A DNA stretch of 64,000 bases, taken from assembly GCF_003334405.1 (NCBI RefSeq), contig NZ_QOWM01000003.1. One strand, 5' to 3'. Each line of letters begins with the position of its first letter. Position 1 is the stretch's first letter. Shown here piece by piece: positions 61,887-63,448 of this stretch. Both the position numbers and the translations under genes were made by a program. Source of the stretch: Escherichia coli (GTDB lineage: Bacteria > Pseudomonadota > Gammaproteobacteria > Enterobacterales > Enterobacteriaceae). The notes beneath the pieces are model-generated. The model worked only from the letters and a program-made list of their open reading frames with translations, had not been told where the DNA came from and ran no database searches.

Positions 61887-61960
61887 TATCATTTTTTCAG
61901 CACTAGATTTTCTTCCTCTCCAGCAGTGGTAGAATAGCGCCTCTACTCAGAGGTGGTGAA

Positions 61961-62248
61961 ATGAACGAAGTTGTAAATTCAGGCGTGATGAACATTGCGT
62001 CTTTGGTTGTATCGGTGGTGGTTCTTCTTATCGGGCTCATCTTGTGGTTTTTTATCAATCGTGCCAGTTCACGGACTAACGAACAGATTGAACTGCTTGA
62101 GGCGTTGCTGGATCAGCAAAAACGTCAAAATGCACTGTTACGTCGTTTGTGCGAAGCAAACGAACCAGAGAAAGCAGATAAAAAGACCGTTGAGAGTCAA
62201 AAATCGGTTGAAGACGAAGATATTATTCGTCTGGTCGCCGAACGATAA
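61961..62248 (+). CDS. yebO: Small membrane protein YebO (95 aa)
   Basis: 95-aa ORF MNEVVNSGVMNIASLVVSVVVLLIGLILWFFINRASS. Confidence 0.85.
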   Translation: MNEVVNSGVMNIASLVVSVVVLLIGLILWFFINRASSRTNEQIELLEALLDQQKRQNALLRRLCEANEPEKADKKTVESQKSVEDEDIIRLVAER

Positions 62249-62917
62249 TCCTTCCTCAATCTTGAGTAACCCCGTCGTTGAAGGGTTACTCAATTCATCC
62301 TGATTATACGCACTGTCATGGTGCAACTGCTTCAAATTAAAACTCTGGTCTGACTTCAAATAATTATCATATTATTTATTTGCGTAACGGGATATCAGAA
62401 AAAGATATTTACCCCATTAATTTATTAGGATGTTTACATCGGATTTGTGATTAAGCGTGGTATTATTTATTAGCGAAACGTTTCTCTCTTGATTTTTTTG
62501 CTCATTCATCAATTTTTCTTATTTTAAATTTACAATCCCTTTGGGGATTGACTTCTCTTTAGGGTAATTAATAGCCGTTAACTGACTGTTTTATGAGAAA
62601 AAGTGATATAACTTTTTATTCATTGCATAGCAAAAAATGTGATATTGCACGCACTATGTAATAACTTCTCCCACTGGCCTGGAACAACTGAACTTATTGA
62701 ACTATGTTAGAAAATACGCCAGTTTAAGTATCTGCCTGAACTGGCAAGGTTAAGCACAATGATATATCGGCGCGTATTCCGTTGCATAAGTGTGCAAAAA
62801 AAGTGGAAGACGTATCGAGATTTGTGCGTCTGATCGAGACATGTTTAAAAATGGCTTGCCATAATTAACGTTGTATGTGATAACAGATTTCGGGTTAAAC
62901 GAGGTACAGTTCTGTTT

Positions 62918-63061
62918 ATGTGTGGCATTTTCAGTAAAGAAGTCCTGAGTAAACACGTTGACGTTGAATACCGCTTCTCTGCCGAGCCTTATATTGGTGC
63001 CTCATGCAGTAATGTGTCAGTTTTATCTATGTTATGCCTGCGGGCGAAGAAAACAATCTAA
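62918..63061 (+). CDS. yobF: Small protein YobF (47 aa), co-transcribed with cspC; not in the ORF track
   Basis: Manual translation from ATG 62918: [47 protein letters not shown] then TAA, 12 nt upstream of cspC. Confidence 0.85.
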
Positions 63062-63073
63062 GGAATTTTTCAA

Positions 63074-63283
63074 ATGGCAAAGATTAAAGGTCAGGTTAAG
63101 TGGTTCAACGAGTCTAAAGGTTTTGGCTTCATTACTCCGGCTGATGGCAGCAAAGATGTGTTCGTACACTTCTCCGCTATCCAGGGTAATGGCTTCAAAA
63201 CTCTGGCTGAAGGTCAGAACGTTGAGTTCGAAATTCAGGACGGCCAGAAAGGTCCGGCAGCTGTTAACGTAACAGCTATCTGA
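63074..63283 (+). CDS. cspC: Cold-shock-domain protein CspC (69 aa)
   Basis: 69-aa [72 protein letters not shown]. Confidence 0.97.
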
Positions 63284-63328
63284 TCGAATCCACTGATCTG
63301 AAGTGTGAATACGCTTCAATCTCGCTAT

Positions 63329-63355
63329 AAAGCCTCGTCGAATGCGAGGCTTTTT
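63329..63355 (+). terminator. Intrinsic terminator after cspC
   Basis: aaagcctcg-tcgaatg-cgaggc followed by ttttt. Confidence 0.75.
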
Positions 63356-63448
63356 ACTATGCTTTATCTTCGCTCCTGGCGTTCGGATATTTGCCCGCCG
63401 CGTGATTCGCGTTACACTTGCGGCCTTTAGTATCCTGCCGGAGTTGTC

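Follow-up and report, generated by a model that had tools for sequence, protein, structure and literature searches.

Introduction

Why does the yobF-cspC operon of Escherichia coli sit behind 669 bp of AT-rich DNA in which nothing is annotated? The question arises in a stretch of 64,000 nucleotides of E. coli DNA (contig NZ_QOWM01000003.1; hereafter the window), whose positions 61900-63300 are 100% identical to E. coli K-12 MG1655, as the reverse complement of NC_000913.3, and convert to the reference as genome coordinate (v3) = 1,970,509 - window position. The neighbourhood reads kdgR, yobH (minus strand), mgrB, yebO, the gap, yobF, cspC, rlmA: yebO (61961-62248) is the last gene before the gap, yobF (62918-63061) is the first gene after it, and cspC (63074-63283), b1823 in the reference record, is named cspE by RefSeq PGAP in many E. 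coli genomes. The yebO-yobF intergenic region itself (62249-62917; 35% GC, no strand assigned) carries zero annotated features in NC_000913.3; yobI, considered as a possible gap gene, is placed by the reference annotation at 1,946,115, elsewhere in the window.

The original prediction concerned 62290-62917, i.e., the yebO-yobF gap without the yebO terminator, and saw in it a long structured 5′ untranslated region (UTR), a promoter region bound by nucleoid proteins, or both. We argue that the gap is most probably (at a rough probability of 0.8) the upstream control region of yobF-cspC, placed behind the mgrB-yebO terminator. This is largely a known, ordinary multi-promoter region, the promoters of which have already been catalogued; what is new here is a family-wide conservation map, the fixed spacing of the promoters, the blocks that lie upstream of them, and a lead to a putative RbsR-type operator.

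A Long AT-Rich Gap in the Core Genome

The 669-bp gap is the largest annotation-free gap in the window, followed by one of 337 bp (the median is 96 bp); it is, as originally claimed, the least gene-dense stretch. Its GC content of 35.1% compares with 50.7% in the window as a whole and 42.7% in the remaining gaps that measure 50 bp or more, and the minimum over 400 bp found by scanning all 64 kb, 30.3%, begins at 62331, inside the gap. The description of the region as strongly AT-rich with T-tracts, illustrated by a T-rich string that we located at 62489-62537, is therefore accurate.

Could such a stretch be a chance feature? Of 5,426 complete E. coli genomes, 5,411 have the gap at its full length, and in the 76 species loci that extend as far as yobF, the gene is preceded by about 440-745 bp of non-coding DNA; together, these observations argue that it is not. 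The comparison covered 80 yebO loci from different Enterobacteriaceae species as well as Salmonella enterica loci, and yobF and cspC were found downstream of yebO in 76 of the 80. One record (CACSKA010000003.1) carries a typical enterobacterial mgrB-yebO-yobF-cspC locus under the title "Chryseobacterium sp. 18061"; this assembly is probably mislabelled or contaminated. Downstream of cspC, S. enterica (L087, 2086-3144) has a gene for a PBP3-like transpeptidase at the place taken by rlmA in E. coli.

The distance between yebO and yobF comes in two forms. It is 441-745 bp in Escherichia, Salmonella, Citrobacter, Klebsiella, Raoultella, some Enterobacter and several other genera, and about 1,455-1,581 bp in Lelliottia, Leclercia, Kosakonia, Phytobacter, Buttiauxella, Cedecea and other Enterobacter. 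In the long form, yebO is followed by an open reading frame (ORF) of 331-341 residues encoding a hydrolase with a metallo-beta-lactamase fold, and then by about 520 bp of non-coding DNA before yobF. The extra gene (for example, L013 2808-3803 and L035 2810-3835) matches NCBIfam NF001911 only below the cut-off. It is absent from E. coli, Salmonella, Citrobacter and Klebsiella. The only trace left is a C-terminal remnant in E. hormaechei (L074, about 2835-2930), and tblastn detected none in the E. coli gap. Part of the length of the gap is probably historical, owing to the loss of a neighbouring gene: many relatives have the hydrolase gene between yebO and the control region, and the E. coli lineage lacks it.

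Transcript Boundaries Around the Gap

The upstream boundary of the region is the mgrB-yebO terminator (62263-62297, plus strand), a hairpin of 10 bp formed by TGAGTAACCC and GGGTTACTCA (62263-62272 paired with 62283-62292). Term-seq puts the primary 3′ ends of the mgrB-yebO RNA at 1,908,212/213 (v3), equivalent to 62296/62297 of the window (Adams et al., 2021; PMC7815308), and beyond these the same table lists no RNA 3′ end inside the gap. Another 3′ end recorded by Term-seq, at 63030, lies within yobF, 44 nt before the cspC start codon, and could mean that the cspA-like leader of cspC is processed or terminated prematurely.

Where does the yobF-cspC RNA begin? The main transcription start site was mapped to 1,905,641 (v2; 62892), at -26 and with 249 reads, and a second one to 1,905,817 (v2; 62716), with a UTR of 202 nt and 107 reads (Kim et al., 2012; PMC3415461); the same table gives the distal promoter sequence as ...CTGGAACAACTGAACTTATTGAACTATGTTAGAAAATA and lists, besides -26 and -202, no further start in the gap on the plus or the minus strand. 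The proximal start was also found at -25/-26 by 5′ RACE and 454 sequencing (Mendoza-Vargas et al., 2009) and at 1,907,615-618 (v3) by tagRNA-seq, and is quoted in a ChIP-seq study of sigma-S, the peak of which covers 62749-62986; in all, four published data sets agree on a main start 25-26 nt ahead of the yobF ATG. The promoters of the operon are cited under the RegulonDB names yobFp1, yobFp2 and, internally, cspCp8 (PMC13162491), and we infer that yobFp2 is probably the -202 start. For Salmonella 4/74, the SalCom start quoted for the yobF-cspC operon is 1,893,683; the positions of transposon insertions in cspC and its leader place this start 181-390 nt upstream of the yobF ATG, and judging from these relative coordinates it would be the equivalent of the E. 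coli -202 start and of the conserved block C described below.

With the yebO RNA ending at 62296/62297 and the yobF-cspC RNA starting only at 62892 and 62716, about 420 bp (62298-62715) lie upstream of both mapped promoters, and the published start-site and Term-seq tables contain no start or end in this interval. The published start-site maps sample few growth conditions, and a longer transcript or an antisense RNA may be made in others. What had been proposed as a long 5′ UTR is thus confined to a minority transcript and to the last 202 nt of the gap, the main leader being only 26 nt long. A transcript that begins immediately upstream of yobF had been named in advance as the observation that would speak against a long leader: this is where the main start lies, at -26, while the -202 start and the distal start in Salmonella preserve a leader of moderate length. 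By contrast, the reading of the gap as a promoter region is well supported, as it contains two mapped starts within promoter blocks that are conserved across the family.

Five Conserved Islands Upstream of yobF

A comparison of 78 Enterobacteriaceae loci resolves the gap into five conserved islands, blocks A to E, amid unconserved sequence; the conserved share is only about 40%. The stretch next to the terminator (62298-62444) is AT-rich and genus-specific, alignable only with three other Escherichia loci, and holds no conserved element, mapped transcript end or mapped start. At the other end, both promoters are conserved nearly base for base across Enterobacteriaceae (the promoter elements of blocks C and E by at least 90% in the 78 loci), and their distance to yobF is kept within a few bases. 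At both 62892 and 62716, a mapped start is accompanied by a correctly spaced -10 element, as expected of a sigma-70/sigma-S promoter. The yobF-cspC RNA is made mainly from 62892, with a 26-nt leader, and less often from 62716, with a 202-nt leader.

Block E, the proximal promoter region (62820-62891, plus strand), was delineated by alignment and a promoter scan and comprises a CRP-like site, a -35 element and an extended -10 element; with the 26-nt leader included (62820-62917), its identity is 84-94% across all 76 loci. The main promoter consists of a -35 hexamer TTGCCA (62856-62861), also called by Mendoza-Vargas et al. (2009), a spacer of 17 bp and an extended -10 element TGtGATAAC (62876-62884). 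Upstream of it, TGTGCgtctgaTCGAG (62823-62838), which matches 7 of the 10 CRP consensus bases and is nearly invariant across 29 genera, is centred at 62830.5, i.e., at -61.5 from 62892; by motif and position, it qualifies as a putative class I CRP site. The promoter scan reveals a second promoter-like pair, GAGACA-18-CATAAT (62836-62865), with a predicted start near 62870. The 5′ end of a published Salmonella yobF::sfgfp fusion, located 48 nt before the ATG and corresponding to 62870 of the window, coincides with the predicted initiation site of this pair.

Might sigma-54 act here? A published genomic SELEX peak of RNA polymerase, enhanced by RpoN/NtrC, maps to about 62881, on the proximal yobF promoter, and the yobF and cspC mRNAs drop under nitrogen limitation. 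No canonical -24/-12 element was found at the peak, which the sequence leaves unexplained; as candidates for a sigma-54 promoter, TGGCttGCC (62853-62861) and the CTGGAAC-N-... of block C were both rejected, as neither has the GG-N10-GC spacing.

The distal promoter corresponds to block C (62679-62716, plus strand), with the -10 hexamer TATGTT (62703-62708), a C immediately upstream of it at -14 (62702), and the start at A62716. The block follows the pattern CTGGA..GAA..TTGA.CTATG.TA.AAA, conserved by at least 90% in the 78 loci, and in 58 of them its -10 element lies 214-219 nt from the yobF ATG. The leader that it generates (62716-62917, plus strand; 202 nt) is unconserved in sequence outside blocks D and E: between 62718 and 62781, the ungapped identity between genera is 27%, the level expected at random.

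Block D (62783-62796; no strand assigned), written GCATAAGTGTGCAA or, alternatively, GCATAAnTGTGCA, is 80-90% conserved in the 78 loci and lies, in E. coli, inside the inverted repeat TTGCA-N6-TGCAA. Its centre is at about -102 from the main start, the block occupying +67 to +80 of the distal transcript, and its distance from the yobF ATG is fixed at 132-134 nt in 43 of the 78 loci compared. Block B (62607-62644; no strand assigned), with the family consensus GCATAACTATGCAnAAAAAGT and the E. coli sequence TCATTGCATAGCAAAAAATGTGATAT, is located about 70-110 bp upstream of the distal start and includes TGTGA (62628-62632), which resembles a CRP half-site. Blocks B and D share the motif GCAT-N6-GCA, each at a similar distance upstream of its respective start.

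What kind of constraint keeps the spacing and lets the sequence in between drift to the random level? This combination fits protein-binding sites that need a certain spacing, and not a constrained RNA. We therefore favour the view that the conserved islands are putative protein-binding sites on DNA: (i) a CRP-like site at -61.5; (ii) two GCAT-N6-GCA motifs, one about 100 bp upstream of each start; and (iii) an RbsR-type operator in block A, all of them candidate assignments made from the sequence. The AT-rich remainder would serve as a spacer, possibly bound by nucleoid proteins.

A different account is that the gap is AT-rich DNA without a specific function, a decayed gene or foreign DNA silenced by H-NS, of which only the last ~100 bp matter. 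Its composition is compatible with this account, as it includes the lowest GC content in the window, and so are the genus-specific first 150-200 bp, the extra gene found at the same position in other genera with its remnant in E. hormaechei, and the insertion sequences present in the gap of several genomes that look otherwise viable. We nevertheless consider it unlikely. In genera whose neutral sequence has reached saturation, blocks A to D are still conserved, block C is a promoter mapped by experiment, and the spacing to yobF is maintained within a few bases; a decayed gene is at odds with the lack of any detectable hydrolase remnant in E. coli, and a foreign island with a locus that belongs to the core genome, with 5,411 of 5,426 E. 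coli genomes containing it and its synteny kept in 76 species. Of the features of an H-NS-silenced island, the gap thus displays the AT-richness (30-35% GC against 50.7%) but not the patchy, foreign distribution.

RNA-Level Regulation Probably Resides Downstream

If a distal transcript with a 202-nt leader exists, could most of the gap be transcribed, after all, as a long structured 5′ leader of yobF-cspC that functions as a riboregulator or thermosensor? Besides the 202-nt leader itself, the distal SalCom start of the Salmonella operon, a hairpin in the first 45 nt of the E. coli distal leader (z = -2.5), and the membership of the downstream yobF-cspC RNA in the cspA thermoregulator family all speak for it. 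The structural tests do not. Compared with shuffled sequence, the distal leader (62716-62935) folds with z = -1.07 and the upstream part (62298-62715) with z = +0.38, neither standing out from the shuffles. RNAalifold, applied to the leader of 29 genera, returns a consensus fold of -9.6 kcal/mol with 16 pairs and a covariation term of -0.26 kcal/mol; one pair shows double changes, in three sequences, so base-pair covariation across these 29 genera is not supported. Between the conserved blocks, the leader cannot be aligned across genera, its identity being at the random level. The hairpin after the distal start is not general either, with a mean z of -0.58 over 78 loci, and an Rfam search gave no match upstream of 62898. 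Given, in addition, a main start at -26 in four data sets and none upstream of 62716, we regard a long structured leader as improbable, and for 62298-62715 it is largely refuted. The suggestion that the region houses a structured leader or an unannotated regulatory RNA consequently finds no support in folding, covariation or Rfam, and the idea of a long leader can be dropped except for the last 202 nt.

This leaves the upstream control region as the preferred reading, with RNA-level regulation assigned to the short leader and the cspA-like body of yobF-cspC, where OxyS, CyaR and a cold-shock-type structure would act, rather than to a 630-nt leader. The 5′ UTR of the main transcript (62892-62917, plus strand; 26 nt) contains a cold-box-like sequence AACGAGGUACAG and the ribosome-binding site, and yobF is a reported target of two small RNAs, CyaR and OxyS, the latter pairing near the Shine-Dalgarno sequence of yobF. 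A cspA-type cold-shock mRNA element (Rfam RF01766) matches 62898-63358 on the plus strand with 135.5 bits, against a gathering threshold of 78 (E = 7e-36); the match runs from the short leader through yobF and cspC to the cspC terminator, almost wholly outside the flagged interval.

How far does the likeness to cspA go? The cold-box-like start of the proximal leader and the RF01766 match are shared with cspA-type leaders. Unlike in cspA, the yobF-cspC equivalent of the 5′ UTR includes a translated ORF, yobF. Nor does the family offer a counterpart to the 600 bp upstream; just the final 20 nt of the flagged interval fall within the RF01766 match. As for YobF itself, tblastn matches of the protein (62918-63061 against L013-L085) stop near residue 38 in many genera; its C-terminal quarter is not conserved, and the underlying RNA still belongs to the cspA-type family.

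A Far-Upstream Block With an RbsR-Type Operator-Like Site

Block A (62445-62526; no strand assigned) is the most remote island, a module made of TTGTGAT, an operator-like palindrome and a promoter-like element. By blastn, the block is conserved in 22 loci; its core, CGAAACGTTT, is found in 71 of the 78 loci and is invariant in all 71, with variable flanks; its distance from the yobF ATG is 380-474 nt, apart from a single outlier match at 582. In most genera, the promoter-like element reads TTGAnG-17-CATTAT, followed by a conserved TTTGGTGCA. In Escherichia, it is eroded, with a spacer of 14 bp and a degraded -10 element, in agreement with the lack of a mapped start there in E. coli.

Which protein could recognize this core? 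The site AGCGAAACGTTTCTCT (62472-62487; no strand assigned) resembles operators of the LacI/GalR family: it is a palindrome with a central CG and the halves AGCGAAAC and GTTTCTCT, and it is conserved beyond its flanks. The perfect 10-bp palindrome within it, GAAACGTTTC (62475-62484), occurs once in the window, against 0.11 occurrences expected. At 15 of 16 positions, AGCGAAACGTTTCTCT matches the palindrome upstream of rbsD in the same genome, AGCGAAACGTTTCGCT (L095, 322-341), which we take to be the RbsR operator. Both are 16-bp sites with a central CG and have the identical left half, AGCGAAAC. They differ in the right half, which in block A is GTTTC or GTTTT plus variable bases, depending on the genus, and in their location: the rbsD operator sits between promoter and start codon, whereas the block A site is 240-415 bp upstream of the mapped starts.

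Cra and PurR are weaker alternatives on sequence grounds. The core AAACGTTT is common to the block A site, Cra operators and the PurR consensus. PurR sites read GCAAAC and Cra operators TGAAAC, as opposed to the invariant CGAAAC of block A; these two proteins are ranked lower because the C and G that precede AAACGTTT are invariant in block A and differ from their counterparts in Cra and PurR sites.

We found no report in the literature of RbsR, Cra or PurR binding at the yobF-cspC locus, and genomic SELEX with RbsR yielded only five peaks. The operator-like site is separated from the main and the distal start by about 415 and about 240 bp, respectively, which is too far for simple repression. 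A repressor bound to block A could act via the adjacent promoter-like element, which is intact in most genera, or through looping to the distal promoter. There is a circumstantial link to RbsR, a lead and not a finding: in Salmonella, a single screen for growth on succinate yielded both rbsR and cspC mutants. In the proposed control region, this far-upstream RbsR-type operator would adjoin a promoter-like element that has decayed in Escherichia. That block A is a previously unrecognised input, at which a repressor of the LacI family, most likely RbsR, would bind CGAAACGTTT and tune yobF-cspC, is a doubtful proposition at present, and we put it forward as such.

A Hidden Gene Is Unlikely

Since block A has a promoter-like element, TTGAnG-17-CATTAT, in most genera, might the gap harbour an independent gene, for a small RNA or a small protein? 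A terminator-like hairpin (62533-62550) follows just after block A, and short ORFs are present, among them 62593-62661 (22 residues), 62759-62833 (24 residues, with AAGG before its ATG) and, on the minus strand, 62512-62417 (31 residues). Closer inspection makes this very improbable. In E. coli, the promoter-like element has the 14-bp spacer and the degraded -10 element, and neither an RNA 3′ end nor a start on either strand is recorded in 62298-62715; even in E. albertii the hairpin is not preserved, and a small RNA ending at 62533-62550 was rejected for want of a Term-seq end, a start and conservation.

The coding candidates fare no better. ORFs in the gap do not exceed 31 residues, except for a 68-residue antisense ORF (62956-62750) that overlaps the yobF start; this one was also rejected, its conservation being limited to the parts that it shares with the promoter and the beginning of yobF. 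The start codons are lost or early stops appear in other Escherichia species, and the frame of the block A ORF shifts between genera, with indels that are not multiples of three; 62593-62661, 62639-62710, 62759-62833 and 62512-62417 (minus strand) were all rejected because the start codon or the frame is not kept in relatives. The statement that some 630 bp lack a convincing long ORF is borne out to this extent: no ORF keeps its start codon or frame in related species.

Insertion Sequences and Adaptive Mutation

Complete E. coli genomes also record where the region, which we take to be a control region, has been interrupted: by IS1 at 62454-62462 (L099), by IS5 at 62623-62630 (two records, L003 and L098) and by an IS3-like element at 62850-62856 (L097), as well as by IS1 inside yobF (62938-62947; L002) and by IS5 between yobF and cspC (63058-63065; L096). 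The insertions are independent, and their carriers include laboratory K-12/C600 derivatives and animal and human isolates. A well-known parallel is the upstream region of flhDC, which is long, receives multiple inputs and is a hot spot for insertion sequences that activate expression. The likeness lies in the length, the AT-richness, the presence of several promoters and sites, and the repeated IS1 and IS5 insertions. The outcome is different: unlike at flhDC, the published yobF-cspC insertions lower expression and were selected in ageing colonies. There, yobF-cspC is a published mutational hot spot, and loss of cspC is advantageous; the insertions spread across the locus are consistent with this hot spot.

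Implications

What follows for the biology of E. coli and its relatives? CspC influences stress and virulence programmes, and the yobF-cspC locus is a recurrent target of adaptive mutation, in ageing colonies as well as under succinate selection. A map of the functional parts of its upstream region helps to read the many insertions and point mutations that are found there. If the RbsR reading of block A were true, it would link the sugar and nucleotide status of the cell to the RNA chaperone CspC and could explain the succinate-growth phenotype that Salmonella rbsR and cspC mutants have in common.
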